From a virus (taxonomy: Duplodnaviria > Caudoviricetes): a stretch of 63,572 nt of DNA. Positions 15,130 to 61,977 of the stretch are shown here, piece by piece; positions within the stretch are counted from its first letter, which is position 1; the number at the start of each line of letters is the position of its first letter. The notes below the pieces were generated by a model, which ran no database searches, had not been told where the DNA came from, and saw only the letters and a program-made list of their open reading frames with translations. The stretch lies in the IMG/VR virus record IMGVR_UViG_3300009788_000107, positions 1 through 63,572 of that record. The stretch is one strand, 5' to 3'. The translations under genes and the position numbers were made by a program.

Positions 15130-15136
15130 AGTCTCC

Positions 15137-15162
15137 TCCGTCCGTAAGTTCCGTCCGTAAGT
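15137..15162. repeat. tandem 13-bp duplication TCCGTCCGTAAGT x2 abutting an RBS
   Basis: Exact tandem copies at 15137-15149 and 15150-15162. Confidence 0.8.
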
Positions 15163-15279
15163 CTAGATCCTGAGCGATTCTCAGGCTACGCAGAAAGCGC
15201 TTGTCGCCGCCCGTGGGAGCGCGAGCGAAGAGCCGCCTCATCATGGTTCCGTCGACGTTCTTTACCTTCCGATCGGCGA

Positions 15280-23669: not shown

Positions 23670-23670
23670 G

Positions 23671-25841: not shown

Positions 25842-26370
25842 CACTATCGAGCCTCTCTTTCGGGACCGCTGAGATGTGTCGTGGGAACGATGGTGAGTTC
25901 TTCGGGACCGACCCTCGGACACTTCGCCTCGACAATCACGCCGCGAAACCTCCAATCCGGTTCGCCTGGGATCCTCAGCGAGTACGCGTGATCGGCTGTC
26001 GGCGCATCGCGAGGAATAAAGCGGATATAGTCGAACCGAAACCGGATCATCGGACGCCGCGTGCTGAGTTCACGAAGACCGATCGTCGCAACCGCGCCGA
26101 CGATACGGCGACCGCACAGGAGGAGCGCTGGTCCGGTCGACCTGGTTTTTCCTGATCGCCCGCCCATCAGGAGATGTTCCCTTTCAACGATGAACAGACG
26201 CGAGACCACGCCATGTACAGACGACCCAGGATCTCGAGTGTCATCTCGCCGTCGAGGTCGACGTCGCGGATGTCGATATGTAGCTCGTCGTCAACCATCT
26301 CGAGGAAGGTTCGGATCGTCATGGTGTCCCGCCCATCAGCGGAGCCTCCGGATCACGTCTGCCGGACCGC

Positions 26371-26703
26371 TCATCGAACCACACGAAACCGGATCACCTT
26401 CACGACCAGCGACGGATCCCAGATCCCGACCCGCTTCCGCCAGGACGTGACGAACTCCGCGACGGAGTCGTAGCCCTCGGCGCGAGCCGCCGCCCGTGTG
26501 AGTGTCGACAGACGCTCCTCGTCGATCTTGAGGATCTCCAGCTTGGCGAACTCCTCGGCCTTCTTCTCTTTGCCCTCCCCGCGCTCGACGGTCGCCGACT
26601 GGATCGACCCGACCTTGAACTTCACAGTCGGCCAGTCGCGCCGCGTTTCGATCTTTCGTCCGTCCATGATTCTCTCGACGTGCTTCGCGGCAAACTTCAT
26701 CAT
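26371..26703 (-). CDS. ASCH/PUA-like domain protein
   Basis: IMDGRKIETRR...AARAEGYDS..EF...W...VIRF. Confidence 0.8.
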   Translation of the reverse strand: MMKFAAKHVERIMDGRKIETRRDWPTVKFKVGSIQSATVERGEGKEKKAEEFAKLEILKIDEERLSTLTRAAARAEGYDSVAEFVTSWRKRVGIWDPSLVVKVIRFRVVR

Positions 26704-27758
26704 CAGACTTCCACGACCTTCCCCTCTGAAACTTCTCCTGTTTTCGTGTCGACGTTATCCGGAGGCGCTTCCTCGAGGATCACGTCGTATGGTGCGCTGA
26801 TCCACTCCTTCACCGCTTTGAACTGAGACTTCAGGATCTCCTTCTTCGACGAGTATCCGAACTGGGCCTTCAGAAAATCCTTCAGCGCCTTGTCGGTGAT
26901 CTCGTGCGTCCTCGCGTGACCGATGAGGTTCTTCAGCGCGCCCTCAGTGATCGGTCCGTCGCCAGCTGGCTGAACCGACGTTGTGTGTCGCACGTCGGCC
27001 CGCGAAGCGGCGTCCTCGTCCTCGTCCTGGCGCGGCCGAGTCTTCGCGGCGAGTCGTCCCTTCGCGGTCGGCCGCTGGTAGCGGTCGGCATTCGGTGAGT
27101 TCGGATCGATATCGATCTCGTCGTCGAACGGTTCGCCTTCGACATTCCGCCAGCCGTCCGAGCTACGCTGGCGCTTCACATACACGCCGTTCTCGCGCCG
27201 GAACCTCGCGGTCCAGCGACCGTTCCAGCATTCGTTCGCCATGCCGATATCTTTCACACAGCGGACGAGGCCGTTTGACTTCGCGGATTCGAGCGCCTTT
27301 CCCCAGGAGTGTTTCTTGTTCGACGCCTGGTATCGTCCCTCGCCGAAGGCCTTCGCGACGGCGACGCCGTTCACGTACAGGCGACAGAGGATGATCACGC
27401 GCCCGCCCTTCTCGACGGGAGGGTCGAAGTCGAGACCCCAGTTCCCCGGCCGGAAGGTTTTGTTCAGTTTGTTTCGGACGTGAATCTGCGGAATGTAGAC
27501 CTCACCGCCTGGGAGGATCTCCAGCTCGTCGACGGTGAAGGGTTCGAGAATCGTCTCGACCTGCGTCGGTGTCCAGTTCGATCGGCTGAGCCCTTGCGCC
27601 GCGAGGGACGCGTCGCCGCCGATCTTCTCGAGCGCGATCTGATCGGGTCGAGCCTGGCGGGAGAGCTTCCGGGGTTTTACCTGAGCGAGCGCCCGAGATG
27701 ACGCCGGGTCTTCCGCTCGAGCTGTCCGCTTCCGAACCTTCCCGCTTTGTCCGCCCAT
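26703..27758 (-). CDS. Mgm101/Rad52-superfamily single-strand annealing protein
   Basis: LEILPGGEVYIPQIHVRNKLNKTFRPGNWGL...ALESAKSNGLVRCVKDIGMANECW parallels the Mgm101 core. Confidence 0.8.
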   Translation of the reverse strand: MGGQSGKVRKRTARAEDPASSRALAQVKPRKLSRQARPDQIALEKIGGDASLAAQGLSRSNWTPTQVETILEPFTVDELEILPGGEVYIPQIHVRNKLNKTFRPGNWGLDFDPPVEKGGRVIILCRLYVNGVAVAKAFGEGRYQASNKKHSWGKALESAKSNGLVRCVKDIGMANECWNGRWTARFRRENGVYVKRQRSSDGWRNVEGEPFDDEIDIDPNSPNADRYQRPTAKGRLAAKTRPRQDEDEDAASRADVRHTTSVQPAGDGPITEGALKNLIGHARTHEITDKALKDFLKAQFGYSSKKEILKSQFKAVKEWISAPYDVILEEAPPDNVDTKTGEVSEGKVVEV

Positions 27759-31828: not shown

Positions 31829-32779
31829 ATGTCAGACGTAGGCACCCCTAAAACCCTCCAAGAAGCCATTATCCACTTCGCTGACCCAGAGGTAGCGCAC
31901 CAGACGATGGTCCAGATGCGCTGGCCCCACGGCGTCGCCTGTCCGACCTGTGGCAATATCGAAGTAAAATACCGAGCAAAACAGCGCACCTGGCGCTGCC
32001 GTGAGCATAGCAAGAATCAGGACTTCTCGGTCAAGAAGGGCACGATCTTCGAGGACAGCCCGATTAGCCTCTCAAAGTGGCTCACGGCCATCTGGTTGAT
32101 AGCGAACTGCAAGAACGGTATCAGTAGCTACGAACTAGCCGGCTCCATCGGTGTTACCCAGAAGACCGGCTGGTTCATGCTTCAGCGGATTCGGAAAGCG
32201 ATGCAGGCCAAGACGTTCGACAAGCTCGGGGAAGAGGTCGAGATAGACGAGACCTACATCGGCGGCAAGGCTCGGAACATGCACAAGGGGCAGCGCAAGC
32301 TAAAGGGGACGGGCGGTGTCGGCAAGGCAGTGGTCATGGGACTCTTGCAGCGGCACGGGCCAGACAAACATTCGACCGTGCGAACGACGGTCATTGGTCG
32401 ACCTCGCAAGTATGTCCTTCAGGGCGAAGTGCTCGACACGGTCGCGCCGGGGTCACAGGTCTACACGGACGAGCTAAAGTCCTACGATGGACTCGACAGC
32501 CACTACGCCCACAAGGTCATCAACCACGCGGAGAGTTATGCGCGCGGCAACGTGCATACGAACGGCATCGAAAACTTCTGGAGCTTGCTCAAGCGGTCGC
32601 TCTCCGGCACATATGTCAGTGTTGAACCCTTCCACCTATTCCGGTATCTTGACGAGCAGGCGTATCGGTTCAACCATCGGAAGCAGACGGACGCGGAGCG
32701 GTTCGCGGGTGTGCTAAGTTCAGTCGAAGGACGGCGCGTGACTTATCAGCAACTAACGGGACGCCCAGGCGATTTGTAG
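31829..32779 (+). CDS. IS1595-family DDE transposase
   Basis: N-terminal Zn ribbon RWPHGVACPTCG; FSVKKGTIFEDS; VEIDETYIGG; YTDE; HTNGIENFWSLLKR; YLDEQAYRFN. Confidence 0.95.
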   Translation: MSDVGTPKTLQEAIIHFADPEVAHQTMVQMRWPHGVACPTCGNIEVKYRAKQRTWRCREHSKNQDFSVKKGTIFEDSPISLSKWLTAIWLIANCKNGISSYELAGSIGVTQKTGWFMLQRIRKAMQAKTFDKLGEEVEIDETYIGGKARNMHKGQRKLKGTGGVGKAVVMGLLQRHGPDKHSTVRTTVIGRPRKYVLQGEVLDTVAPGSQVYTDELKSYDGLDSHYAHKVINHAESYARGNVHTNGIENFWSLLKRSLSGTYVSVEPFHLFRYLDEQAYRFNHRKQTDAERFAGVLSSVEGRRVTYQQLTGRPGDL

Positions 32780-32822: not shown

Positions 32823-32993
32823 ATGACAGCGCGACCATCGTGGACACCACCGGCGACCGAAGGCGAGACACCGCACGCGCGGTTCACGAATCTACTGGCT
32901 CGTCTGCTCAAAGTCCCAAAGCACGAAATCGACGAACAACGAGAAAGCGAACGAGTAGCTAAGACCAGGAAAAAGAAAGCTGCATCAGACTAG
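32823..32993 (+). CDS. small basic IS-associated ORF (56 aa; not in ORF track)
   Basis: MTARPSWTPPATEGETPHARFTNLLARLLKVPKHEIDEQRESERVAKTRKKKAASD. Resembles short RF..LL..LL.VPK.EI peptides I associate with the 3' side of such transposases. Confidence 0.6.
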   Translation: MTARPSWTPPATEGETPHARFTNLLARLLKVPKHEIDEQRESERVAKTRKKKAASD

Positions 32994-33079
32994 GTGCGGG
33001 CGGTGGGAGTCGAACCCACAAGCCCTGCCAGGCGGCGATTCTAGAAATCGCTGTGTTTACCGATTTTCACCACGCCCGC
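32993..33079 (-). tRNA. type II (Leu-like) tRNA with CUA anticodon - amber suppressor
   Basis: GCGGGCG acceptor / GTG-AAAATCGGTAAA-CAC D arm / GCGAT-TTCTAGA-ATCGC anticodon arm (U33, CUA at 33044-33042, G37) / long variable arm / GTGGG-TTCGACT-CCCAC T arm / CGCCCGC-A-CC. Terminal A of CCA is not encoded. Confidence 0.9.
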
Positions 33080-33101: not shown

Positions 33102-34289
33102 TCACACGGTCGCCGCTTCTGATTGCAAGCCAGGCACTGAGTCTGTTTCGCTAGCGAACGGGTCTTCGTGTTCTGGACCACGCTCCGCTTCACGCACCTT
33201 TTTCCAAATCTCTTGCAGTTGCAGGCCTGGGAAATAGCGGCGACCCTTTCGCTCACCCGCAGTGACTATGAACCCATGGTCGGCTAACATCTTAAGGTCT
33301 CTAGTTGCGACGTGTTCAGGAACGCCCGCTGCGTGCCGATAGTGGGGATTCCTAATACCGTTTTGCGGGCGCATGGTCACATTGACTAAGCTAGCCACCA
33401 TCCTTTCCGGAAGTTTCGCGCTGGCAATTAATTGCTCAACCTCATCCCACACGCGCTGCATTTGGCGAGTTCGACGGAGCAATCGCATCGCTTGGCGATA
33501 GTGGGCAATCAAACAGAATCGAATCCATCGGCTTGTGTCGTTCTCAGGATGCCATGCTCCTTTTGCCGTGTCTGACAGCACAGCGTAATAGTCTGCGCGC
33601 TCGTTCCATAGATACTCTTCAATGCTGCAAAACTCTGGGCTTAGGATCTCCTCCCGAGCTAGAACCATGGTTTGGAGACATCTGGCCATTCGACCATTTC
33701 CGTCTGAGAACGGGTGAATCATTACCAAGTTAAGGTGCGCCATAGCTGCCCGTATCATCGGTGGCAGAGCAGAAGCTTCAGACAGGTCGCTGACTAATTC
33801 CGTGACTAGCTCAGGGATAAGTGCGTCGTCAGGAGCGTCGTACACCACCTTCTTTGTTGCCTCGTTTCGGACATAGATCGGCCCAGGGCGGTATCGGCCG
33901 GGATGTTTTGGTGGTCCGTAGTCGAGGGTGTATTTCATGATCATGAAGTGCAACCCTCGGATGAGGTCATCTGAATATTTGAAGTGAAGATCGTCCGAGA
34001 GCTGCAGAACGTATGTCATTGCCTCTTGATAACCACGGACGGCGGCCCAGGTTTTCCCTGGGGTCTCAATAGGTTCTTCACCATCAACGGCGGCAACAGC
34101 ATCCTCGTCGCTTACGTGATACCCCTCGATGCTATTCGACCCTTGGAGCGCTTTGGCAGCCGCAAAGCGACTAAGCAAACCGGTCCAGCGGCGCGGCTGG
34201 ACGGCATTGCGTAGCCGCTTCCTGAGATCATCAATACGTTTATGGACCTCTACCTCATGTGGGGTAAGGTCAATAGCTCTGAATAACAT
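33102..34289 (-). CDS. Fic-family AMPylase with N-terminal inhibitory motif and probable C-terminal HTH
   Basis: Catalytic HPFSDGNGRMAR; inhibitory (S/T)xxxE(G/N) motif SNSIEG; C-terminal ATRDLKML...GERKGRRY. Confidence 0.92.
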   Translation of the reverse strand: MLFRAIDLTPHEVEVHKRIDDLRKRLRNAVQPRRWTGLLSRFAAAKALQGSNSIEGYHVSDEDAVAAVDGEEPIETPGKTWAAVRGYQEAMTYVLQLSDDLHFKYSDDLIRGLHFMIMKYTLDYGPPKHPGRYRPGPIYVRNEATKKVVYDAPDDALIPELVTELVSDLSEASALPPMIRAAMAHLNLVMIHPFSDGNGRMARCLQTMVLAREEILSPEFCSIEEYLWNERADYYAVLSDTAKGAWHPENDTSRWIRFCLIAHYRQAMRLLRRTRQMQRVWDEVEQLIASAKLPERMVASLVNVTMRPQNGIRNPHYRHAAGVPEHVATRDLKMLADHGFIVTAGERKGRRYFPGLQLQEIWKKVREAERGPEHEDPFASETDSVPGLQSEAATV

Positions 34290-49307: not shown

Positions 49308-49934
49308 CTAGTGGAGCTTGTACCTCCACCAGAGATTCTCCGCGCTGATCACGGCCGGGTGTTGGAAGACGTCCTGAAGCGATTGCTTCCGCTGAACGTA
49401 TAGCTCGCCGATAATCAGTTTCATTCCGTGTTTGATCGTAGCCGGGACCGCCTTCCCGTTGTCGCCGTACCCACACTTGAACGTGACCTTCACAGCGTCC
49501 TGTTCGCCGCGAACGGTCGGCCAGGTGAGACCCCAGGCCGGACGGATTCGCGCTCGTGGCGGTCGGATCGCGTTGCTATTGGCGGTCGTCTGGCCGGAGA
49601 CCTTGTACTCTGCCGCCGCCCAGGTGACGAGCGCCCCGGTCGTGTCGATATATTCGATCGTCGTGATCGACTGGAGCGGCGGAAGCGGGACGGTGATCTG
49701 GTGTCGAGGGAAGCGGTCGAGGAACAGTACCCAGTCCTGAGTAATCAGCGGCCGACGAAGGAACCCCTCCGCGTGTTCTCGCGCCACTTTGATCAGGCCT
49801 TGAAAGTACGCGTGTTCGTCGGCGTCCGAGATCAGGCGAACGTGTTCGTCGCGAGCCTCGTCGACCTCCATTGGCTCGGCGGTCGGTTCGGTGAGTTGCT
49901 CGAGTCTCCAGGGCACGTCCCCGTTTATTCTCAT
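49308..49934 (-). CDS. head-tail connector (adaptor) protein
   Basis: PTAEP...AREHAE..LRRPLITQ.W...PLPPLQSI...VKVTFKCGYG....VPATIK. Confidence 0.88.
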   Translation of the reverse strand: MRINGDVPWRLEQLTEPTAEPMEVDEARDEHVRLISDADEHAYFQGLIKVAREHAEGFLRRPLITQDWVLFLDRFPRHQITVPLPPLQSITTIEYIDTTGALVTWAAAEYKVSGQTTANSNAIRPPRARIRPAWGLTWPTVRGEQDAVKVTFKCGYGDNGKAVPATIKHGMKLIIGELYVQRKQSLQDVFQHPAVISAENLWWRYKLH

Positions 49935-50872
49935 GAGCTGTCCCCTTCGATAGGAGTCGGACCAGGTGGACCTCCTGGTGTCTCAGACGTCGTCGAGCGC
50001 TCCGCGACCGCGCCGCCTGGCGGTTGTCGAGGCCGTCTCGGTTTCTTTACCTGGCGCGGGACCGGCGCGCCTGGCGCGTCTCCGGCGACCAGGTGTCGGA
50101 ACTCGGCGACGACCTGGTCGGGCGAAATCCCCGTCATGGCTTTGTAACAGTGATCGCAGTCAAGCCACGATCCGCACGGCGTACCGGGGAGGTCCGAGAC
50201 GATATTGAAATGGTTCGGATACCCCAGGTGTTCGGCGCTCGTACACCCGCCGAAGATCACGACGGCCGGAACGCCGAGCGCGGCGGCGGCGTGATGATAG
50301 CCGCCGTCAGATCCGAGGAGACCCTTCGACGCGGCGATGAATCCGCAGGCCGTCCGAAAGTCGCACTCGATCGACTCGACGCCTTTCATCGGCCGCTGTT
50401 TCGAGTACGTGAGCTGAACGAGCTTCACGTCGTCGCGGAGCTGGCGAGCGACTTCCATGTACTGTCCCCACGGCCAGCGCCGATTGTTCGAGGCGTTAAA
50501 CTTCGTGTTCGGCTCGAACACGTAGAAGTCCCCGCTCTCCGCAAGGTCACGTCCCGGTTGCGCGTACGGTTCGATCGACAGCTCGCCGACGTGGTCTTGC
50601 GCTTTCCAGTCCGCCCACCGCCAGCCGGTTTTTCGCGTGAAGGGATACTGAATATACGGCCGACAGTTCGGACCGTTCCTCACGCGGACATACTTCACGC
50701 CGCGCTCCTGGTCCCCAGGCTGGAGGATGTACGAGAGACCTTCCCACAGCTCATGATACCGAATGGTCGAGCGCTCTCCACAGAGCGCGATCTTCATCGT
50801 CGAATCCGCGAGCTTCGCGTGTTCGTCCCTCGCGTGTCCCGACGCCATGATCTCATCGCCATATCCCATCAT
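49931..50872 (-). CDS. glycosyltransferase family 9 (heptosyltransferase-like)
   Basis: GYGDEIMA...RRWP...GSDGGYHHAAAALGVPAVVIFG...PCG....C..C..AM..I.P.QV. Confidence 0.85.
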   Translation of the reverse strand: MMGYGDEIMASGHARDEHAKLADSTMKIALCGERSTIRYHELWEGLSYILQPGDQERGVKYVRVRNGPNCRPYIQYPFTRKTGWRWADWKAQDHVGELSIEPYAQPGRDLAESGDFYVFEPNTKFNASNNRRWPWGQYMEVARQLRDDVKLVQLTYSKQRPMKGVESIECDFRTACGFIAASKGLLGSDGGYHHAAAALGVPAVVIFGGCTSAEHLGYPNHFNIVSDLPGTPCGSWLDCDHCYKAMTGISPDQVVAEFRHLVAGDAPGAPVPRQVKKPRRPRQPPGGAVAERSTTSETPGGPPGPTPIEGDSS

Positions 50873-50892
50873 TCGTTCTCCTCGTTCGTCCG

Positions 50893-51573
50893 TTACCACT
50901 TCATCAGATAGTCGCCGCTCATCACTGAGACCTTCCGAGCGCCGAGGCCTTCGAGGAACGTGACCGCGTCGGTCGTACCGATTCCGTAGCGGTCCGCGTG
51001 TCCTGGTTTCTGTTCGACGAGAACGACCGGCCGCTCGCGCTGAAGCGTCTCCGTCGCGCCTTCGAGAACGAACCGTTCGTATCCCTCACAGTCGATCTTG
51101 AGGAACCCGATCCCCGTAAGCTCGAAGCTGTCGAGCGTCTTCACGTCGACGGCGTCGCCCTGGTTCCCGTTCGCGTTCGGGTCGACGTACGTGTGTCCGG
51201 AGCTTCCCGCGTGTCGCTTCATCACCGCGACCCCGCCGTCGTGAGGCCCGAGCGCGACCTCGAAGAGACACGGCGTCGCGACGCGCTTCGGGTTCAGCTC
51301 CGGCGCGAGGTTCGCTTTCCAGCATTCGCGATGCTCCGCGATCGGCTCGAAACAAAACACGTTCTCCTGAAAGAACTTCACGAGCTGGATCGTCCACAGG
51401 CCGACGTGAGACCCGACGTCGATCGCGTTCCTCCGGTTCGTGATATGTCCCTGAGCCGCCGTCCACTTCTGGAACTGGTACGCGCCGCGCCCGTCGACCT
51501 TCGGCATGCGCTCGATCATGTCGACCAAGTGAACCTCGCCGTCCGGTAAGTAGATCCCGCGACATTCGATCAC
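50893..51573 (-). CDS. FkbM-family SAM-dependent methyltransferase
   Basis: AIDVGSHVGLW...CFEP...VALG...TLDSF....FLKIDCEGYE..VL.GA..TL...RPVVLVE. Confidence 0.9.
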   Translation of the reverse strand: MIECRGIYLPDGEVHLVDMIERMPKVDGRGAYQFQKWTAAQGHITNRRNAIDVGSHVGLWTIQLVKFFQENVFCFEPIAEHRECWKANLAPELNPKRVATPCLFEVALGPHDGGVAVMKRHAGSSGHTYVDPNANGNQGDAVDVKTLDSFELTGIGFLKIDCEGYERFVLEGATETLQRERPVVLVEQKPGHADRYGIGTTDAVTFLEGLGARKVSVMSGDYLMKW

Positions 51574-51923
51574 GACGGCCCCCCGTTGATCTTCGCGATG
51601 AGCGCGGCGCGCTGGTCGTTCAGGACTTGGATCCCGAGCGCGACGTCGAGAACTTCCCGTTCGTCCAGCTCCAGCGGTTTCGTCGCGGCGCGGAACGCAC
51701 GTATCCGATCCTCGAAGGCCCACAGCTCCCCGTTGATCGCGGCGAGCGCGAGATAGTCCTCGAACTGAAACGCCGAGTCTCGAAGCGCCTCCGCGATCGC
51801 CAGGATGAGCTGACCGCGCTCCTCAAGATAGGCGGCGGTCGACTTGTGAAAGAGCTTCAGCGTGATCACCGACAGCCGGTCGGCCAGCTCGCCGGGTCCA
51901 GGGTTCAGGAGTCGACCGGCCAT
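51570..51923 (-). CDS. DUF6165-like helical protein
   Basis: GELADRLSVITLK...LAAINGELWAFEDRIR...LNDQRAALIAKIN. Confidence 0.7.
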   Translation of the reverse strand: MAGRLLNPGPGELADRLSVITLKLFHKSTAAYLEERGQLILAIAEALRDSAFQFEDYLALAAINGELWAFEDRIRAFRAATKPLELDEREVLDVALGIQVLNDQRAALIAKINGGPS

Positions 51924-52666
51924 CAGTACGCGATCTCCTCGACCTGGTCGGCGACGGCGTGAAACTCGTCGACGAGCCAGCGGTCGGTTTGGCGGAACTC
52001 GCCGGTCCGAGGCGAACCGAGGGTGAAGTGAGCGATCGCGACGTCGTCGGTCGGTTCACTCACGCCGATCAGATAGTTCCAGCGGAACGGAAGCGAGCCG
52101 ATGAGGTTGTCGTCGGCGAGCCAGCCGAACCCGTGAAGCGTCCGACCCGGCCAGGTGTTCACGACCGGCCGCGAGAGACACCGGTTCGCCGGGTGTCCGC
52201 AGTTGATCAGCATCACGCTCGACCAGTTCTTTCGAGCGTAGTAGCTCTGAGCATGCCCGCCCTTCTTCCGGTCGACGCCGTGATCGTGAATATGCGGAAC
52301 ACACATGATCGCGTATCGGTCGTCGGCCAGGGTGAACAGCTCGGCCAGGTCACGGCGAAACAACACGTCTTGATCCGCGAAAAACGCCCATCCCTGGAAG
52401 TCGCAGAGGAGAGGAATCAGGAACCGTGAGATCGCGAACCCGGTCGACATAGGCGCGTCGCTGATCTCGTCGAACAGCGCGGTCGGTCCGCCTGGAATGT
52501 CCGGCTCGACGACTCGCGTCGGCCGCGTGTAGAGTCCTCGGCGTTGCATGTCCGCCAGCTCGATCGGTTCGATCGTCGGCGCGTTCGGGGACGTGTCCTG
52601 AATCGAGCGAACCGCGACGTCGAAGTCGAGCTGTTCGCCTGTGTCGTGTCCAATAAAGAGTCTCAT
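51923..52666 (-). CDS. GT-A glycosyltransferase (GT8/CDI-like)
   Basis: LFIGHD...STGFAISRFLIPLLCDFQGWAFFADQD (DxD)...RKNWSSVMLINC...WNYL...HFTLGSP. Confidence 0.85.
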   Translation of the reverse strand: MRLFIGHDTGEQLDFDVAVRSIQDTSPNAPTIEPIELADMQRRGLYTRPTRVVEPDIPGGPTALFDEISDAPMSTGFAISRFLIPLLCDFQGWAFFADQDVLFRRDLAELFTLADDRYAIMCVPHIHDHGVDRKKGGHAQSYYARKNWSSVMLINCGHPANRCLSRPVVNTWPGRTLHGFGWLADDNLIGSLPFRWNYLIGVSEPTDDVAIAHFTLGSPRTGEFRQTDRWLVDEFHAVADQVEEIAY

Positions 52667-52669
52667 CCG

Positions 52670-53509
52670 TCAGTGTCCCCCAATCTTCCGCCAGGTCGTC
52701 CCGTTCCGGATCTCGCTGAGCGTCCACTGTTGCGACGCGAGCTGGATCATGAGGCGCTCCCGATGTTGCGGGTACATCGGATCCTCGATACGGCTGAGAT
52801 CGTGAAGGCTCAGGTCGTGAGCCGCCGACTCCTCCGACAGGGTGAAGCTCGGCACGCCTTGGATCAGCGCGTCGAGCGCGGAGGCGCTGGAGTACGTGAC
52901 ACAGGCCCAACAGTCCGCTAGATGATGCTCGATCGGATGCTGGTCCCGGTCGTTGAGACTCCAGGGTTTCCAGCGAATCCGAATCGGTCGGTCGGTGTGT
53001 TCCTGAAGTTCCGCGACCACGCGGCGCGTCCAGGCGTCGGCGCTCTCCTCGCCTCGAAGCTGAAAGTGAAGCGGCGAGTTCGGACAGACCAGAATGTGAT
53101 CCCCGTACATGCGCCACTCGCGGATCGTGCGGCGGTGAACGAGCCAGCGATCCATACAGCCGGGATCGGTCCCGTGATACTGGAAGTCGTTCCTCGTGAC
53201 GCGGAAGAACCGCTTCCGGCTGAAGTAGCCGTGATCGCCATAGTAGAAGGTCCGCCGCTGGTCCCGCGCCTTCTTCACGAGCGGAAAGATCCGAGGCGAC
53301 GGGAAGAGCGCGATCGGCGGCGGTCGCTCGCCGCGTCCTGCGTCCCCGAGGACGGCGTCGACGTCGAGCGGTCCGAGCTGTTCGCCCTCCGGAGGCGTGA
53401 GGTCGACGAGCTGAGCCGCCTCGTCCCTCAGGCCCGCCACGAACGCCGCGCCGAACTTCGGCGACGTCGGCGACCGACCCGAATCGACGAACGTGATCGG
53501 CAGGGTCAC
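52670..53509 (-). CDS. GT-B glycosyltransferase-like (KpsS/capsule-synthesis-like)
   Basis: YGDHGYF...HILVCP...TDRPIRIRWKP...LADCWACVTYSSASALDALIQGVP. Confidence 0.7.
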   Translation of the reverse strand: MTLPITFVDSGRSPTSPKFGAAFVAGLRDEAAQLVDLTPPEGEQLGPLDVDAVLGDAGRGERPPPIALFPSPRIFPLVKKARDQRRTFYYGDHGYFSRKRFFRVTRNDFQYHGTDPGCMDRWLVHRRTIREWRMYGDHILVCPNSPLHFQLRGEESADAWTRRVVAELQEHTDRPIRIRWKPWSLNDRDQHPIEHHLADCWACVTYSSASALDALIQGVPSFTLSEESAAHDLSLHDLSRIEDPMYPQHRERLMIQLASQQWTLSEIRNGTTWRKIGGH

Positions 53510-54135
53510 GGAAGCGCCTCTTCGAGACTCATCTCGTCGAAACAGTGAAGCGCCGTCTCGCGGGTCGCGTTCACGACCGAGACGTTCAGCCGCTTGAGGT
53601 CGTCGAGCATCCCCTCGAACTCAGGGATGAACCGCTGCGTGATCGGCGCGGTGTTCCAGGGGTGACGACCGAAGAAGTGATGTTTGTTGTACGTGTGTTG
53701 CATGTCGTACCCCAGGAGGACGATCCGTGACCCTCCTAAGTGGACAGCGACATTCATCGCCTGGTATCCCGAGTTCTTCCCCGTCCGTACCATCGAAGGG
53801 TCGGTGTCGAGTCCTGTTGCCCCGCCGTTCGCGAGCTGTATCACGTCGGCGTACGGCCACTGATCCCGGCCGTAGTCTTTCGCCTTCGCGAGATCGTTCT
53901 TCGTCTGGACCATGCTGATCTTGAGACCAGCAAAGTCCGGAAGGCCTTTGTGGTACACCCACCACTTCGCGTCGTAGGCGTAACACGCATCGGCGAACGG
54001 AGCGAGTCGAACCGAGTCCTTCACGACCAAGACACGCGCTCGACCTCGGAGGTATTCACAATCCTCCGAGGTCAAGCTCGGTCCAGGTGCTACACAGACG
54101 ATCGTCGAACCCGGCCAGAGCCGGGGAACGATCAT
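53506..54135 (-). CDS. Maf/DUF115/sialyltransferase-like protein
   Basis: VCVAPGPSL...NSGYQAMNVAVHLG..RIVLLGYDM...HFFG.H...VVNAT..TAL.CF. Confidence 0.7.
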   Translation of the reverse strand: MIVPRLWPGSTIVCVAPGPSLTSEDCEYLRGRARVLVVKDSVRLAPFADACYAYDAKWWVYHKGLPDFAGLKISMVQTKNDLAKAKDYGRDQWPYADVIQLANGGATGLDTDPSMVRTGKNSGYQAMNVAVHLGGSRIVLLGYDMQHTYNKHHFFGRHPWNTAPITQRFIPEFEGMLDDLKRLNVSVVNATRETALHCFDEMSLEEALP

Positions 54136-54137
54136 CG

Positions 54138-54593
54138 CTAGGTGACGACTTCAGCAACGTCCGAGCTATCGGCTCCAGGCTGATAGCGCCGGTCGAACTG
54201 TTGCACGAGTGCGGAGACGTCCGACGTCGCCACAGCGACGGTAACCGTCAGCCGGAAGAAGTCGAACCCACCCTCGACGTCCAGCTCCTCGGTCGCCAGG
54301 TTGATCTGTGCGACCTTGCTCGCGTCGTTCGGTGAGTCGATATCCGTAAGCTGCGTGATCGCCTTCCCTGTGATGTCCTTCGCTCCAGCGCCGCCCGAGG
54401 TCGTCGCCTGTTCCAGCTTCGCGTCGATCGTCGCGTCCGTTCCGAGGACGCCGGTCTGAACCGTCGCGAGGTAGTTGTGAGCGTTCGCCGCGTTGATCCA
54501 CGCGGACGAAACTGCTCCCGCTGCGTGTGCGTCCGGATCGATCTTGCCAACGTACTTGGCTCGATCCGACGGTTTCACATTCACGTCGCCCAT
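54138..54593 (-). CDS. putative capsid decoration/cement protein
   Basis: 151 aa right after the capsid gene; TIDAKLEQAT..GG.GAKDITGKAITQLT motif. Confidence 0.65.
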   Translation of the reverse strand: MGDVNVKPSDRAKYVGKIDPDAHAAGAVSSAWINAANAHNYLATVQTGVLGTDATIDAKLEQATTSGGAGAKDITGKAITQLTDIDSPNDASKVAQINLATEELDVEGGFDFFRLTVTVAVATSDVSALVQQFDRRYQPGADSSDVAEVVT

Positions 54594-56304: not shown

Positions 56305-57870
56305 TCACCGACAGGAGAGTTCGGTCAGTCGGAGTATCTGTCGGTGTTGTTCCTTCCTGTTGGCCTCTGAGAGCGTCGAGGCGGCGTTCGGGTCGTCCGG
56401 GGTATCACCAGGAGCGCCGGAACGGCTCAGCGCCTCGTGTTGCCCCCTTGCCGCCGCCTTCACGACGTCGACAGCGGTTCGTCGCGAGATCGTTACCTCG
56501 CCCTCGAACCCGAGGATCCTCATCGGGTTCTCCTTGGTCTCGATGAGCGCCATACTGATCCGATTAACGGACAACGTCTGATCGCCGAGCGCGACGATAT
56601 TGAATAACTCCCCGACGAACGTGAACGGCTGAGTCGTGTCGAGGATCCGACACGCCAGCTCGTGAGACAGCTCGACGCCGTGGACGACCAGGCCTCCCTT
56701 GTCGAAGTTCCAGTTCACGTACGCCGCCCGAAGGTCGTCGGCCAGCATCACGACGACCGAGCCACACTCGGCCGTGATCGCGACGCTCACGACCGTCTCG
56801 TCGTTGGTCCGCGCCCAGTCGACGCCGACGTGTTCCGGAGCCTCGGGCTCGACTTCGACCTCGTCCAGGTCGGCCGCGTTGACGCCGAGGGCGATCAGCC
56901 GGTCCCGCTCGGCCTGGAGCTGTCGCCCTTCCCATTCGTCTTCCGCTGTCCGCTTCGCGATGTTTGCGAGACTCAGGTCGAATGTTCTCGCCGACTCCAG
57001 CGCTTCCGCCGGGACTGTGACCATGCTTCGACGACCTCGAGCGCTGCCTCCAGAGAGACGAGCGAGTTCCTGGTTCAGTGTCCCGACACGGTCCGCGACG
57101 CCTAGCTCGACCGCCTCGGCCGCGCTGAACGTCCGGCCGTCCCCGAAGGTGTTCCGGACCCGGTTCGGTGTGAGGCCTCGACCCTTCGCGACGCCGCGAA
57201 TAAAGTCGGCGTGTATGTCGTCCATTTCCTTCTGGAGATCGGCGTGAACTTCCTCACTGAGCGGCTCGAACGGATTCCCGTCGACCTTATGCTCGCCCGC
57301 GAAGATCAGTGTGATGTCCAGACCGATCTGTTCGAGGAACTTCGACTCGTCGACGTGCATCGTCCAGACGCCGACGCTTCCGGAGATCGACGACGTCGAC
57401 GCGACGATCTGATCCGCCGCGACCGAGAGCCAGTACGCGGCCGAGGCCATCATCGTATTGGAGACCGCAATGATCGGTTTCGATCCGCGAAGCGCCAACA
57501 TCTCAGCCGCCGCCTCGGGTGTCCCGTCGACCTCGCCGCCTGGGGAATCGACGTCGAGAACGATCGACGTGATATCCGGATTCGATACCGCCTCCTTCAT
57601 CGAACGAACGATCGACTGTGAGGACTTGATCCCGAAGAACTCACTGAACGCGTCGCCTCGGTGGAAGATGGGACCGAGGATTGGGATCACCGCGATCGAT
57701 CCGAACTGCGTGAACGCCTTCCCTCGGTCCTGAGCCTCGCGCATCCGTTCGACTTCGTCGGCCGAGACCTGTCCCTTCTCGAACTGGATCATCCGTCGCA
57801 ACAGGACCGCCATGTGATCCTTGTGCATTAGGTAGGGTCGCGTAAGGAGGTTAGTTAGTCGTGACAACAT
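56305..57870 (-). CDS. prohead protease, peptidase S49 (SppA/ClpP-like) with C-terminal extension
   Basis: IVLDVDSPGGEV...MASAAYWL...GSVGV...AGEHKVDGNPFEPL...VAKGRG. Confidence 0.93.
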   Translation of the reverse strand: MLSRLTNLLTRPYLMHKDHMAVLLRRMIQFEKGQVSADEVERMREAQDRGKAFTQFGSIAVIPILGPIFHRGDAFSEFFGIKSSQSIVRSMKEAVSNPDITSIVLDVDSPGGEVDGTPEAAAEMLALRGSKPIIAVSNTMMASAAYWLSVAADQIVASTSSISGSVGVWTMHVDESKFLEQIGLDITLIFAGEHKVDGNPFEPLSEEVHADLQKEMDDIHADFIRGVAKGRGLTPNRVRNTFGDGRTFSAAEAVELGVADRVGTLNQELARLSGGSARGRRSMVTVPAEALESARTFDLSLANIAKRTAEDEWEGRQLQAERDRLIALGVNAADLDEVEVEPEAPEHVGVDWARTNDETVVSVAITAECGSVVVMLADDLRAAYVNWNFDKGGLVVHGVELSHELACRILDTTQPFTFVGELFNIVALGDQTLSVNRISMALIETKENPMRILGFEGEVTISRRTAVDVVKAAARGQHEALSRSGAPGDTPDDPNAASTLSEANRKEQHRQILRLTELSCR

Positions 57871-59557
57871 TTCGATCTCCTGTCTGTCCGAGCGCCAGCT
57901 CCGCGAGCTGAGGTCCGAGCGTTTGTTTCCAGTCTTCGGCGGCGGCGATCCCTTTGTCTTCGAGTACGAGTCCCTGGCGCGCCGCGTACTCGCGAGCCTG
58001 AGAGATCGGAACCTTCAGCGTCTCGGACACGTACTCCGCGTGTCCGCCGTAGAACTCGCGGAGCCAGCCCGACCAGGCGACGCCGTCCTTTGAGAACTTT
58101 CGCGCCGCCTTCTTCACTTGCGTCAGTTCGCGGTTCACGACACGCGACGCCAGCTCGAGCGCGAACAGTGTCTCTCGAACGCCGTGAGTTGAGCGGAGCT
58201 GTTCGGCGCGCTCGCCGGTTGTGAGTTGCCCCTGTGTCGGGTTCGGGTTCCCGTTCCCGCCTGGGTTCCCGCCGTTCGAGCTGGAGCCCCCCGGCTCCGT
58301 TCCGGCCATCATCATATTCGTCGGCTGAAGGAACTCCTCCAGCGACTCCGGACCGGGAACCATGTTCTCGATCTCGCGAGCCTCCGCTCGATTCATCCAG
58401 CCGGTAAAGATCGCGAGCTGGAGGAACGAGGACCGCGCCTTGAGGTCGCCGCGAAGAAGGTCGTCGAACAGATACTCGGCGAACACGTCCTCGTCGACGA
58501 TGAGGTCGCGGAGAACCGCTTGCTCGATTCGAGCGCCGAACGGGCGGAACGCAAACTTCACCAGGTCGGACGAGAAGATTTCCGCCGAGGCGTGCGTTGG
58601 TTCTTTCCCGGCGTCGGCGAGAACCTGTGTCGGGATCCCGAGCCAGCGAGCGACCTCGCGAACGCCGTGTTCGCGTGTCGCCAACATCTGGGCTTCCTGC
58701 GGATTGATCCCGAGCTTATTCACCGTCGTTCCCTGGTCGACGATGAGGACGCCGCCGACGTTCCCGAGGCCGGAGAGGTAGCGCTTGATCGACTGGTGAA
58801 GTTCCTTCTCGCCTTCGTCTTCGAGTTCGTCCTGGACCTGAGCGACCAGCGACGCCGACGCGCCCGACTTAAAGAAGCGCGCCGCGTACGTGTCGGCCGC
58901 GATCACGCCGCCGATCGATCGCGCCGCGACCGCCGTGAGGGACAGGCCCATGAGACCATCGCTCATGAATCCGCGAATGTGAAACATCTCCTCCTGAGTG
59001 AGGAACCGATCCTGTAGAACCGGATCGGTTATGCGGTAAATGATGCGACCAGGGGAACCCGCGATCGCGCTCGGGAGGCGCTCGGGAAACACGCGGTCCG
59101 GATGGAACGGAATGATCTGATCAGCGAACGACCTGGACCCCGGCTTGATCTCGCTGTAGGCGTTCCCTCGAAGGAGGACGTGTCCGATCACCATCTCCCA
59201 GTATTCGAGCGCGGTGTGATCGAGGTTCGGTCTGTTGCGGAGGACGTTATAGATCGGAAGCTCCGGCGCTCGACGTCGCGACGACCGGCCGGTCGGTGTG
59301 TCGCTCGGGATCCGCGTGTAGGACAGGAGCGGCGTCGCCGCCATGTTCCGACCCATGAACGTGATCCCCGAGTAGACCGCCGAGGACGTCATCGCCAGCT
59401 CAGGCGTCATCGGGATCCCGGTGTCCATGAATCCCTGAATCCACGACTGCGGAAGACCCGTGAGACTGTCGGACCAGAGACCCGGTGTGTCGTCGTCCGG
59501 CGCAGCGCCGCCGAAGGCGTAGCGTCCGCTTCTGTGTAGTGACCCGAGGAATCCCAC
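57851..59557 (-). CDS. portal protein, HK97 family
   Basis: LLRGNAY...HPDRV...EMFHIRG...DGLMGLS...EVARWLGIP...LLRGD...GWMNRAEAREIEN. Confidence 0.95.
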   Translation of the reverse strand: MGFLGSLHRSGRYAFGGAAPDDDTPGLWSDSLTGLPQSWIQGFMDTGIPMTPELAMTSSAVYSGITFMGRNMAATPLLSYTRIPSDTPTGRSSRRRAPELPIYNVLRNRPNLDHTALEYWEMVIGHVLLRGNAYSEIKPGSRSFADQIIPFHPDRVFPERLPSAIAGSPGRIIYRITDPVLQDRFLTQEEMFHIRGFMSDGLMGLSLTAVAARSIGGVIAADTYAARFFKSGASASLVAQVQDELEDEGEKELHQSIKRYLSGLGNVGGVLIVDQGTTVNKLGINPQEAQMLATREHGVREVARWLGIPTQVLADAGKEPTHASAEIFSSDLVKFAFRPFGARIEQAVLRDLIVDEDVFAEYLFDDLLRGDLKARSSFLQLAIFTGWMNRAEAREIENMVPGPESLEEFLQPTNMMMAGTEPGGSSSNGGNPGGNGNPNPTQGQLTTGERAEQLRSTHGVRETLFALELASRVVNRELTQVKKAARKFSKDGVAWSGWLREFYGGHAEYVSETLKVPISQAREYAARQGLVLEDKGIAAAEDWKQTLGPQLAELALGQTGDRNVVTTN

Positions 59558-59559
59558 GC

Positions 59560-59883
59560 TTAGCCCCTCCGCTTCTTCGTCTCTCTTGGTTCACGATCGA
59601 AGAAGGGAGGTCGAGGAGGGAGCGCGACCCACAGGAGGAAGATCGCTGGCACGCCGGTCGCCGCCGGTCGGTACACGTCCCACAGTGACCACCCTATGAG
59701 AAACAGGCTCCCCACGAATAGAACCTCTTCTCGTCCGATCGTCTCTTGCGTCCGTACCGTCCGCCAGGCCGTCGCGAAAGGCGCGCCGATCGTCTTTAGC
59801 CTCTCACGTATTCTTCTTGTCGTCTTTGGTCGCATTGCCGGAGTGTCGGTCACGCTTCGGAACCTCGCGGAGATTCCGGACAC
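59560..59883 (-). CDS. small membrane protein upstream of portal
   Basis: Two hydrophobic segments; typical position. Confidence 0.55.
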   Translation of the reverse strand: MSGISARFRSVTDTPAMRPKTTRRIRERLKTIGAPFATAWRTVRTQETIGREEVLFVGSLFLIGWSLWDVYRPAATGVPAIFLLWVALPPRPPFFDREPRETKKRRG

Positions 59884-61717
59884 CGCCCGACGTCACGAGG
59901 GAGGCGCGGATCCGTCGACCCTTCCGTCTGTGCGGAAGGAGCATGAGCTGATGAACCGCCATCCCCGACGCGACCGCGCCGTCGATTCGTTTGGTTCCCT
60001 GAGGCTTTTCGATCCATAGGTTCTCGTACTTGTCGTACTTGGGTTCCGCGTTCGCGAAACACCAGGCGAGAACCTCGTTCCCGTCGTGTCGGAGTCGACG
60101 CGACCGGATAAGAACCTCGATCAGTTTGAACGCTTCCGAGAGCGCTCGTCCCTGTCGAAGCTCGACGACATTCACTCGACCTCGATCGCGGAGTTGAACC
60201 GCGAGCTGTGTAGCCTCCCGAGGATCGTAGCCAAGCGCCTGAAGTCGGAACCGCTTCTTTAAGTCTCCGACAATCGTCTGATAGATCAGGTCATAGTCGA
60301 TCACGCCGCCAGGCGTCGCCGACAGAAACCCTCTCTGTCGCCAGCTATCATACGGGATCCGTTCCGTCTTCACGCGCTCGATTAGTGTTTCTTCTGGGAG
60401 CCAGAAGAACGGAATCAGTTCGACCTCATAGTTCAGGGTGAGCTTATGGACGATCGGCGCGCCCTCTTCGTCGGTCGATTCGATCTCGACCTTCTCCGCG
60501 TCGCGCCCGCTGGTGTCCTCGTGTCGCATCGCGACGACCGCCGCCGTCAGGTCGAGCTTCGCTGAGAGGTCGAGGCCGAGCGCCGCCGCGTTTCGATCCT
60601 CGTTCGCGGTCGAAACCGCGTCGACCTTGCACGCGTTCCAGTCGTCCGGCGCGATCCATATCCGATGAGTCTGCGTCCAGATACAAAAGTTGAGCCGCTT
60701 AATCAGAGCCGCCTTCGAGGGAATCGCGAGCGCCAGCTCGACCTGTTTCCGGAGGTATTCGTGATCGATCGTGATGTTCAGGAGGAGCGACGGGTTCGAC
60801 TTCGGCCAGGTCTCCTCGTCGGTCCAGTCGTCGCAGTCTGAACACCCTTCCCGAGGTTGTCGATATCCCTTGTCGTAACACGGGTCGCACGGGTCCAGGT
60901 GACAGACGTAGGCGAACCAGGCCTCGTCCTTCACGACCCCTTCGAGGACGTCGATCGATCGCTGATGATGTTCCCAACAGACCGACGTGAGGTCGTGTCC
61001 AGAGTTCGTGATGTCGACCTCCAGCGGCTCGGGATCTTTCTTGAACCCGGCGCGCATCTTGTCGACGACCATCGCGTCCGGATGTTCGTGGAGTTCATCG
61101 ATCAGCGCGAAGTGGGGACGCTTCCCATCGAGGCCTTTGTGTTCAGAGGAGACCGAGCGGAAGAAGGAGTTCGTCTCGTCGACCGCGAGATTGTGTTTCC
61201 CGATCGTGATCACGTCGCGGAGTTCTTCGGAGGCGCTCGCCATGCGGATCGCGTCCCGTAACATGATCGACGCTTGCTCCCGTTGCGTCGCGGCCGAGTA
61301 GATCTCCGACGCCTGGTGTCCGTCGATCACGAGACCGCCGAGACCGATCCCCGCGAGGAGCGGCGTCTTCCCGCTCCCCTTGCCGGTTTCGATGTAGGCG
61401 TGTCGGAAGCGGCGAACCTCGTCGGTGTCATGCTGCCAGCCGAAGATCGACCCGATGACGAACTTCTGCCAGCCGACCACGTCCGCGCCGCCGTCGAGCC
61501 AGAACACGTCGCCCTCTTCGAGCGTGAGGAACGTCGGGAAGAAGTCGATCCACTTGTTCGCCTCGTCCTCGTCGAAGTAGTACGGGAAGCTCGCGTCCCA
61601 TCCGACGCGCTCCAGGTCCCCCAGGTGACGAACACAGGCGAGACGAACAGCGCGGGACGCGAGGATCTTTCCGTCGCGAACGTGTTCGGCGTACTCCGTC
61701 GTCGTGTGCGTCATCAT
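59804..61717 (-). CDS. terL: terminase large subunit
   Basis: WQKF...RRFRHAYIETGKGSGKT (Walker A); LIDELHEH (Walker B); GLDLSAKLDLTA; KRIDGAVA. Confidence 0.96.
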   Translation of the reverse strand: MMTHTTTEYAEHVRDGKILASRAVRLACVRHLGDLERVGWDASFPYYFDEDEANKWIDFFPTFLTLEEGDVFWLDGGADVVGWQKFVIGSIFGWQHDTDEVRRFRHAYIETGKGSGKTPLLAGIGLGGLVIDGHQASEIYSAATQREQASIMLRDAIRMASASEELRDVITIGKHNLAVDETNSFFRSVSSEHKGLDGKRPHFALIDELHEHPDAMVVDKMRAGFKKDPEPLEVDITNSGHDLTSVCWEHHQRSIDVLEGVVKDEAWFAYVCHLDPCDPCYDKGYRQPREGCSDCDDWTDEETWPKSNPSLLLNITIDHEYLRKQVELALAIPSKAALIKRLNFCIWTQTHRIWIAPDDWNACKVDAVSTANEDRNAAALGLDLSAKLDLTAAVVAMRHEDTSGRDAEKVEIESTDEEGAPIVHKLTLNYEVELIPFFWLPEETLIERVKTERIPYDSWRQRGFLSATPGGVIDYDLIYQTIVGDLKKRFRLQALGYDPREATQLAVQLRDRGRVNVVELRQGRALSEAFKLIEVLIRSRRLRHDGNEVLAWCFANAEPKYDKYENLWIEKPQGTKRIDGAVASGMAVHQLMLLPHRRKGRRIRASLVTSGGVRNLREVPKRDRHSGNATKDDKKNT

Positions 61718-61977
61718 TCCTCGAATCGACGGAACGTACACGTCGCGTCGTGTCTTGTGTTGTGGGCCGCTCTACAGAGCGGACAACAACGAACGCCGAG
61801 AGCCGTGTTAAATCCCGACCATTCAACTCGGCGCAATCCTTCCTCCAGCTCGGAGATCTCATTCGCGGCAGACCCGAGAAGCAGAGAAAGAATTATGTTC
61901 TTTGGATACCCTTTGTGGTCTTCCCGAAGAACCCGAGCGGCCTCACGAAGAGTCGACTTCTTAAACTTTTCAGGCAT
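61714..61977 (-). CDS. hypothetical protein
   Basis: Start MPEKF; CPLC...H...C motif. Confidence 0.45.
   Translation of the reverse strand: MPEKFKKSTLREAARVLREDHKGYPKNIILSLLLGSAANEISELEEGLRRVEWSGFNTALGVRCCPLCRAAHNTRHDATCTFRRFEE

Follow-up and report, generated by a model that had tools for sequence, protein, structure and literature searches.

A Maf-anchored glycosyltransferase cassette in the head operon of a siphophage-like genome and its possible role in virion glycosylation

Introduction

Why would a tailed phage interpose six genes for sugar-handling enzymes between the genes of its capsid and those of its neck? The question is raised by the IMG/VR record IMGVR_UViG_3300009788_000107 (Duplodnaviria; Caudoviricetes), a linear stretch of 63,572 bases, about 75% complete by CheckV, which looks like a siphophage genome and was analysed over its full length (the window hereafter). 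At 49931..54135 the window carries a cassette that encodes, in order of transcription, a Maf/GT42-fold glycosyltransferase-like enzyme, a protein of 279 amino acids (aa) with the fold of retaining beta-Kdo (3-deoxy-D-manno-oct-2-ulosonic acid) transferases, a GT8-like GT-A glycosyltransferase, a small DUF6165/DUF4254-like protein, an FkbM-family methyltransferase and a GT9-like glycosyltransferase. A first-pass annotation, made from the nucleotide sequence, had taken this cassette for a putative virion glycosylation system. We found that the cassette belongs to a type of Maf-anchored island that is very widespread, and that glycosylation of the virion by the cassette is the reading best supported by translational coupling, folds and distribution, with a chance of being right that we judge to be about even.

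Results and Discussion

Organization of the cassette

The limits 49931..54135 coincide exactly with the outer ends of the cassette, at the stop codon of its last gene and the start codon of its first, and the dense packing reported in the first-pass annotation, between the capsid and decoration genes and the connector, was also found: six co-directional minus-strand genes abut or overlap one another and are flanked by the gene of a 151-aa protein and by the head-tail adaptor gene (Table 1). When the junctions were read from the sequence, the TAG of the 151-aa gene was followed after 2 nucleotides (nt) by the ATG of the Maf-like gene. The Maf-like and 279-aa genes overlap in GTGA, a gap of 3 nt separates the 279-aa gene from the gene of the 247-aa GT8-like protein, the latter overlaps the 117-aa gene in TGATG, and the 117-aa and FkbM genes again share GTGA. 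The TAA of the FkbM gene precedes a short spacer with a GAGGAG ribosome-binding site and the ATG of the GT9-like gene, which overlaps the adaptor gene in ATGA and so couples the cassette translationally to the adaptor. There are thus four start/stop overlaps in total, besides the gaps of 2-3 nt. Because of this reading two start codons were moved: the FkbM gene most likely starts at 51573 (GTG, 226 aa) instead of 51723, and the GT9-like gene most likely at 50872 (ATG, 313 aa) instead of 50899, the replaced positions being those of the longest open reading frame (ORF).

All of the cassette genes except the 117-aa gene have many homologues, which indicates that they are real genes and not chance ORFs. 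Their GC content (0.60-0.65, and 0.75-0.83 at third codon positions) is the same as that of the flanking structural genes. A simple scan found a single promoter-like site within the cassette, inside the GT9-like gene, where shuffled sequences average 1.4 (chance level), and no terminator-like site on the coding strand, a result not beyond chance. No membrane-like segment was found in the six proteins using hydrophobic windows of 19 residues; the one segment reaching 1.72 lies in the conserved Rossmann core of the GT9-like protein. The statement that sugar-synthesis and export genes are missing was upheld, since Pfam scans of 69 window ORFs turned up no protein of sugar-nucleotide synthesis or export. 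The same scans gave no Gtr-type families (the membrane transferases and flippases of serotype conversion), and PADLOC gave zero matches for the cassette proteins.

Folds and motifs of the cassette proteins

Searches of the PDB by sequence, whether with the Maf-like, 279-aa and 247-aa proteins singly or with profiles of the Maf-like and 279-aa families, returned nothing useful, and fold prediction was therefore required. For the Maf-like protein, an AlphaFold2 (AF2) model built on 36 relatives (predicted local distance difference test, pLDDT, 92.0) agrees with the Maf/sialyltransferase-like assignment made at the outset. Its best structural match by VIA is Maf 5mu5 (Z 15.2, root-mean-square deviation (rmsd) 3.3 over 180 residues, region 262-511), followed by CstI/CstII of family GT42 (Z about 12), the archaeal MptE kinase (HPPK, 11.2), SteA (9.9) and GT29 (about 9), and unrelated folds start at Z 4.6. 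At the sequence level, the Pfam MptE-like family (PF01973) reached 21 bits against a cut-off of 34.6 and matched profile positions 136-169 only, and a precomputed PF01973 label is present on some of the relatives. The family is made up of stand-alone proteins of about 200 aa, with 662 members at E <= 1e-5 among 776 candidates. Residues S20, N121, D144 and H158 are invariant in 36/36 sequences; D25, D49 and D55 are near-invariant in the alignment. The catalytic acidic residues of Maf are given as E324 and D415 in bioRxiv 10.1101/2020.06.03.131540.

The 279-aa protein, first annotated as a KpsS-like GT-B, is closer in fold to the beta-Kdo transferases WbbB (GT99), KpsC (GT107) and KrkA than to any other GT-B. 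These enzymes account for all of the top 15 PDB entries found by VIA, and all 15 solved WbbB/KpsC/KrkA entries align with the model at Z 12.6-9.8 over 221-256 residues, whereas generic GT-B entries reach Z <= 8.7 with an rmsd of about 8-9. A Foldseek search run with the same model, a check proposed with the first annotation, also returned WbbB, KpsC and KrkA as best matches (E about 1e-5), and in BFVD the model matches a "capsule polysaccharide biosynthesis protein" of Tetraselmis virus 1 (E 8e-14). The protein has 86 homologues at E <= 1e-5 among 1385 candidates. It belongs to no curated family, Pfam giving only DUF6716 at E 0.0099, and a profile of 35 relatives found no Kdo transferase in the PDB. 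Residues D92 (34/35), D173 (33/35) and E266 (35/35) are conserved in the alignment. The catalytic nucleophile of retaining beta-Kdo transferases is an Asp (D232 in WbbB, D160 in KpsC).

For the 247-aa protein, the GT8-like GT-A assignment is sustained by a D98-x-D100 motif and by H213, all invariant in 10/10 aligned sequences; the downstream His is presumably the GT8 metal ligand that acts together with the DxD. A profile search of the PDB gave weak matches around the DxD, to WbbM (E 0.0024) and to a GT8 (E 0.19). No Pfam or NCBIfam family was matched, and relatives in phage records are labelled nucleotide-diphospho-sugar transferases. The 117-aa protein is helical and, as had been proposed, resembles DUF6165: an Atlas structure reaches template-modelling (TM) scores of 0.78-0.83 to DUF4254/DUF6165 clusters. 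Using phmmer, we found no homologue of it in any of the 86 loci with hits.

The two last enzymes were recognised from sequence. The FkbM S-adenosylmethionine (SAM) methyltransferase exceeds the cut-offs of Pfam Methyltransf_21 (PF05050, 45.9 bits versus 22.7) and TIGR01444 (72 bits versus 37.7). The GT9 assignment also held, PF01075 scoring 28.7 bits versus 22 over profile positions 99-228 of 247, a match that covers only the C-terminal, nucleotide-sugar-binding half of the protein. A profile of the GT9-like family finds WaaF (1psw, E 1.4e-6) and WaaC (E 5e-3) in the PDB, and the protein does not reach the heptosyltransferase equivalogs TIGR02195 (26.3 versus 134.6 bits) and TIGR02193 (23.6 versus 185.3 bits). 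A cluster of C233, C239, H241 and C242 (C-x5-C-x-H-C) is invariant in 6/6 sequences and has no WaaF counterpart in the alignment, which suggests a metal site in this family. On account of the Cys/His cluster we also considered a kinship with the autotransporter heptosyltransferases, which heptosylate proteins; the PDB profile search gave WaaF and WaaC and no enzyme of that type, and the idea is unsupported. The window protein ends in a Pro/Arg-rich tail of about 50 residues that is absent from the other five sequences.

Table 1. Cassette genes and adjoining late genes of the window, in order of transcription.
Feature	Coordinates	Strand	Basis or remark
TerL	59804-61741	-	first in transcription order
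Portal	57851-59557	-	after TerL
S49 protease	56305-57870	-	after portal
HK97-type major capsid protein, 482 aa	54653..56101	-	Pfam Phage_capsid 2.9e-43; TIGR01554 2e-42
151-aa protein in decoration/cement position (Bbp16-like lead)	54138..54593	-	phrog_28483 1.1e-44
Maf/GT42-fold glycosyltransferase-like enzyme, 209 aa, conserved island anchor	53506..54135	-	phrog_4603 4.4e-40
GT-B-type enzyme with retaining beta-Kdo transferase fold, 279 aa	52670..53509	-	AF2 pLDDT 92.3
GT8-like GT-A glycosyltransferase, 247 aa	51923..52666	-	phrog_28018 3.4e-34
Helical DUF6165/DUF4254-like protein, 117 aa	51570..51923	-	Pfam DUF4254 26.2 bits, cut-off 27
FkbM-family SAM methyltransferase, 226 aa	50893..51573	-	phrog_8156; start by GTGA overlap
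GT9-like glycosyltransferase, 313 aa, with Cys/His cluster and Pro/Arg-rich tail	49931..50872	-	Pfam Glyco_transf_9
Head-tail adaptor, downstream boundary	49308..49934	-	phrog_442 1.8e-21; TIGR02215 3.8e-17

Distribution of the Maf-anchored island

We scanned IMG/VR with the Maf-like family alignment and found a relative encoded in at least 578 of at least 599 candidate viral stretches, from which 80 loci were kept. After crude gene calling, seven loci whose gene set lacked the Maf-like ORF were dropped, and in the remaining 73 the neighbours of the Maf-like gene were clustered and the cluster representatives annotated. In all 73 viral loci the Maf-like gene has head, neck or tail genes in the interval from -3 to +9 genes. 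Where 2 kb or more of downstream sequence was available (55 loci), 51 loci have one or more additional glycosyl- or methyl-transferase genes, which precede the adaptor and head-completion genes or are interspersed with them. What is encoded downstream is very varied and comprises GT4-like, GT2, GT-D, GT8-like, GT9-like and 279-like glycosyltransferases, along with FkbM and Methyltransf_24/CmcI-like methyltransferases, radical SAM enzymes and a PhyH-type dioxygenase.

Upstream, at one or two places from the Maf-like gene, a collagen-like fibre protein is encoded in 45/73 viral loci, and the capsid gene is the upstream neighbour in 12/73. This collagen-like protein of about 285 aa starts with a coiled coil, carries Gly-X-Y repeats together with a CBM5/12-like globular domain, and might be a fibre of the head or neck; its gene stands between the portal gene, which it follows immediately, and the Maf-like gene (loci L012-L090, for example L083:5755-6612). 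One database protein even consists of collagen repeats fused to a Maf-like domain. The window itself has no collagen-like gene, as judged from phmmer searches with all members of the collagen cluster (46 loci) and from a Gly-X-Y scan.

A scan of bacterial genomes gave 45 loci or contigs with a Maf-like gene, mostly in Alphaproteobacteria (Kiloniellaceae, Hyphomicrobiales, Mesorhizobium, Ensifer, Phenylobacterium) and some in Gammaproteobacteria. Phage head or neck genes stand beside the Maf-like gene in 41 of them. Among the loci examined, none lies within a recognisable lipopolysaccharide (LPS) or flagellar cluster, and the island never adjoins an integrase or immunity region in the stretches examined.

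The island in named phages and prophages

The arrangement seen in the window recurs in another viral locus (L016), where Maf-like, 279-like, GT-A, FkbM, GT9-like and adaptor genes follow one another in the same order and in the same head/neck slot. In Kiloniellaceae prophages the neck genes are followed by a Maf-like gene, two 279-like genes and GT9-like, FkbM and GT-A genes. Caulobacter jumbo phages such as CcrBL9 carry, in order, genes for a Maf-like protein, two 279-like paralogues, a GT-A enzyme, a methyltransferase and a GT9-like enzyme, and this cassette sits between the tail-fibre genes and the endolysin gene.

Model phages also harbor the anchor gene. D3-like Pseudomonas phages have a Maf-like gene (orf7 in D3) between the capsid and adaptor genes, and further along their neck region encodes a 276-aa protein and a methyltransferase. 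The 276-aa protein of D3/PMG1 was tried as a GT9-like relative, which hhalign left unsupported (probability 1.5%, E 0.035). A trio made up of a Maf-like gene, a gene for a protein of about 280-296 aa and a Methyltransf_23 methyltransferase gene is shared by Klebsiella phage Eowyn (L137) and Pseudomonas phage PMG1 (L002), with 35% identity between their middle proteins; the Maf-like gene of Eowyn is labelled "structural protein" in its record. In phage P1, PmgO and PmgP, described as having a "putative morphogenetic function" (L136, AF234172.1 79592-80778), are tandem MptE/Maf-like paralogues. PmgO is 29% identical to the window Maf-like protein (E 4e-14), and both genes lie behind the late promoter LPpmgL, beside a Ser/Thr phosphatase gene.

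Does the cassette decorate the virion?

Several observations favour glycosylation of the virion. The cassette enzymes are soluble and are produced along with the structural proteins. Two folds, the most distinctive ones, belong to enzymes that use cytidine monophosphate (CMP)-activated ulosonic acids, and a third to enzymes that use ADP-heptose. The fidelity of the island to head, neck and fibre modules and the adjacency of the collagen-like gene would be hard to explain otherwise. A conserved initiating enzyme combined with hypervariable transferases and methylases is, moreover, the usual layout of a glycan-diversifying locus. As acceptor, the adjacent collagen-like fibre protein is the obvious candidate in most related phages, and in the window phage the 151-aa decoration-like protein and the capsid protein are the candidates.

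A number of findings weigh against this reading, and the interpretation given in the first-pass annotation is supported in part. No acceptor protein was identified. The capsid protein has no extra C-terminal tail, since it aligns to the last residues of the capsid of Bradyrhizobium phage ppBdUSDA122-1 (40% identical), and no Ser/Thr-rich tract was found in the head proteins (at most 0.27-0.33 in stretches of 30 residues) or the tail-tube protein. Neither the Maf-like nor the 279-aa protein reaches the cut-off of any curated sequence family, so that their activities are argued from fold. None of the 16 metagenomic (IMG/VR) capsid relatives carries a Maf-like or other cassette gene; in all 16 of these a homologue of the 151-aa gene adjoins the capsid gene, and in the Bradyrhizobium phage the capsid, 151-aa and adaptor genes are directly adjacent, with no cassette between them. 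Because its own capsid lineage lacks it, the cassette is an accessory insertion. One of the 16 relatives (L147:9880-12419) holds about 2.5 kb at the same 151-aa/adaptor junction, including an ORF of the PNP_UDP_1 phosphorylase superfamily, and the junction thus also behaves as a cargo hot spot. Given 16 relatives without a cassette, one of them with unrelated cargo, position alone is no proof of a structural role. The phosphorylase-superfamily insert also holds an overlapping ORF on the opposite strand with methyltransferase domains.

The islands of other phages add to these difficulties. P1 PmgO and PmgP lie among phosphatases, and no recognised glycosyltransferase was found nearby. In Pelagibacter phage Mosig (L010, 124832-130666) a 279-like/GT-A pair stands beside nucleotide-metabolism (ribonucleotide reductase) genes, which means that this pair also travels outside structural modules; the Mosig cluster also holds two methyltransferases, a sulfotransferase and further glycosyltransferases. 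A quick tree of Maf-like proteins (44 rows, the window and 43 of the 73 loci, limited to genes of 170-260 aa) was poorly resolved, with 17 of 38 inner branches open, and at this resolution the proteins did not sort by upstream neighbour; the collagen label took 9 changes on this poorly resolved tree against a shuffled mean of 12.7, a value as low being reached in 8 of 500 shuffles. Lastly, our literature search found no glycosylated virion reported for a phage of a Gram-negative host.

The main rival, which we consider unlikely, is that the enzymes work at the cytoplasmic side of the inner membrane on a glycoconjugate of the host envelope, which could be lipid A-core or a capsule-type primer carried on a lipid. 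The phage would gain from an altered receptor late in infection or during lysogeny, either by blocking superinfection or by keeping its progeny off cell debris. Indeed, the nearest characterised folds use lipid-linked acceptors (O-antigen or capsule primers for WbbB/KpsC, lipid A-core for WaaF/WaaC), many carriers are prophages in proteobacterial genomes, and the cassette is accessory in its lineage and occupies a site that takes other cargo, as is often the case with conversion genes. However, the cassette is coupled in translation to neck genes and its own promoter signal is not above chance, its proteins have no membrane segment, and neither flippase, polymerase nor exporter was found among the 69 window ORFs with Pfam. 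The close association with head and neck modules (73/73 viral and 41/45 genome loci), never next to integrase or immunity genes in the stretches examined, and the presence of the island in large virulent-type jumbo phages are likewise at odds with envelope modification, and an envelope change begun so late in a lytic infection would hardly reach the outer membrane in time.

Still less probable, in our view, is a cytoplasmic target outside the virion, such as a host defence or translation protein or a small molecule, in which case the cassette would be a moron in the late operon serving host takeover or counter-defence. The cargo site with its phosphorylase-superfamily gene fits this explanation, as does the fact that the Maf/MptE fold also includes kinases and regulators (HPPK, Z 11.2; SteA, Z 9.9) and that P1 PmgO/PmgP adjoin a protein phosphatase. 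Yet five to six enzymes for a methylated glycan of several sugars exceed what toxin-type modifiers that add a single sugar need, PADLOC had no matches for the cassette proteins, and it would be left unexplained why the island is so strictly tied to head, neck and fibre genes in unrelated lineages of phages. Hypermodification of the phage DNA with sugars and methyl groups for evading restriction has a precedent in DNA-decorating phage glycosyltransferases (bioRxiv 10.1101/2023.12.21.572611) and genes for Dam, MT-A70 and a 2OG-Fe(II) oxygenase are present in the window, but it seems very improbable, since those genes lie 34-41 kb off (12567-16814) in the early/replication region, the cassette stands in the late structural operon although modification must precede packaging, and the fold searches returned, for the Maf/GT42, beta-Kdo-transferase and GT9 folds, no enzymes other than those acting on proteins, glycans or lipids.

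A possible pathway

The virion glycosylation pathway that we infer from the observed gene order, coupling, folds, motifs and distribution would operate in the cytoplasm, co-transcribed and co-translated with the head and neck genes, and would furnish a virion protein exposed at the surface, before assembly or in its course, with a short oligosaccharide that ends in a methyl cap. In the order of steps that we consider plausible, the Maf/GT42-fold enzyme would O-link an ulosonic acid to a Ser or Thr of the acceptor, the sugar being Kdo from host CMP-Kdo, or a nonulosonate where the host makes one. The beta-Kdo-transferase-fold enzyme could then append another Kdo-type residue, the GT8-like GT-A enzyme a hexose from a UDP-sugar and the GT9-like enzyme a heptose-type sugar from ADP-heptose; the FkbM enzyme would O-methylate the glycan, and the DUF6165-like protein might act as an accessory. 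Gram-negative cells always hold CMP-ulosonic-acid and ADP-heptose donors for their LPS core. The lack of sugar-synthesis genes in the phage would be expected if the donors come from these LPS-core precursor pools of a Gram-negative host. The benefit to the particle may lie in shielding, stability or adsorption.

It is possible, and we propose it only tentatively, that Maf-anchored islands are a widespread and so far undescribed protein-glycosylation system of phages of Gram-negative bacteria. A minimal Maf-fold enzyme would prime fibre, decoration or capsid proteins with Kdo or a nonulosonate from host CMP-sugars and the fast-evolving transferases and methylases would diversify the glycan, so that many proteobacterial phages, including D3 (orf7), P1 (PmgO/PmgP) and the Caulobacter jumbo phages, would wear LPS-core-like sugars. 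If true, this could change views of phage antigenicity, particle stability and adsorption and of the pharmacology of phage therapy, and it would give a function to long-unknown genes of model phages, namely D3 orf7 and P1 pmgO/pmgP. The small soluble enzymes could be of use in protein glyco-engineering with ulosonic acids, and the variable island would represent a new case of glycan diversification within a viral structural operon.

Other features of the window

The late genes are all on the minus strand, with functions assigned via Pfam, PHROGs and NCBIfam, and past the adaptor come, in order, genes for a head completion protein, a gp10-like protein, tail completion, the tail tube and the tape measure. 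Among cultured phages, similarity at the DNA level was confined to the capsid gene of Bradyrhizobium phage ppBdUSDA122-1 (67% identity), and the window adaptor is 26% identical (E 1e-10) to the gene located immediately behind that phage's homologue of the 151-aa gene. For the 151-aa protein, 749 representative clusters were found at E <= 0.001, and an Atlas structure search gave a TM score of 0.60 to the Bbp16 cluster, which we treat as a lead only.

The single tRNA of the window (32993-33079, minus strand) has the amber-reading anticodon CUA and is labelled tRNA-Pyl by ARAGORN; a TAG stop ends both the capsid gene and the 151-aa gene. It is flanked by an IS1595-family transposase gene (31829-32779, plus strand) and a Fic gene (33102-34289, minus strand) whose product matches the PADLOC SoFic model (4.9e-47). 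The GC content falls to 0.557 around these three genes, which for this reason look like a foreign islet in the phage. The early region (12567-16814 and 21267-27758, minus strand) encodes Dam, a 2OG-Fe(II) oxygenase, an MT-A70 methyltransferase, RusA, a Cas4/PD-(D/E)XK nuclease and an Mgm101-like annealing protein, and the record has HNH endonuclease genes at its two ends, next to the gene of the small terminase.

Comparison with known systems

In a full-text literature search we found no description of the cassette or of Maf/MptE-like genes in phage structural modules. The nearest relatives of the anchor enzyme by fold are the Maf flagellin glycosyltransferases (Magnetospirillum 5mu5; Geobacillus, Clostridium), whose central catalytic domain is the best match. 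According to bioRxiv 10.1101/2020.06.03.131540, Maf enzymes are cytoplasmic protein O-glycosyltransferases that modify Ser/Thr of filament proteins with CMP-activated ulosonic acids, and transfer of Kdo by them has been demonstrated. The phage protein differs in size (209 aa versus 632 in Maf), lacks the flanking N- and C-terminal domains of Maf and is encoded in head/neck modules, whereas Maf proper belongs to flagellar loci.

The other glycosyltransferases show a similar mixture of likeness and difference. The 279-aa protein, close in fold to WbbB, KpsC and KrkA, is shorter than these and has no sequence-level match to them; moreover, they act on lipid-linked glycans for export, whereas no exporter was found among the window ORFs. 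The GT9-like protein resembles WaaC/WaaF (GT9) in its C-terminal nucleotide-sugar half and differs from them in its N-terminal acceptor half.

As a whole system, the closest precedent is that of the mycobacteriophages, in which virion glycosylation by phage enzymes (Freeman et al. 2023, as cited in PMC12619734) is reported to shield particles from antibodies. Both systems have phage-encoded glycosyltransferases, virion structural proteins as proposed carriers and a cytoplasmic mode of action on host nucleotide sugars. In mycobacteriophages the glycans are found on C-terminal parts of capsid and tail-tube subunits in actinobacterial (Gram-positive-type) hosts, whereas the window capsid has no such tail, the enzymes are of Maf/GT42-fold, Kdo-transferase-fold, GT8-like, GT9-like and FkbM types, and the hosts are Proteobacteria. 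A second parallel lies outside the phages. The chlorovirus PBCV-1 decorates its capsid protein using its own cytoplasmic glycosyltransferases and a sugar methyltransferase; it differs in that it is a virus of eukaryotes, its glycans are N-linked and its enzymes come from unrelated families. The kind of system proposed for the window, virion glycosylation encoded by the phage itself, is therefore a known one, but its enzyme set, donors and host range differ from those described, and it is far more widespread than the window suggests.

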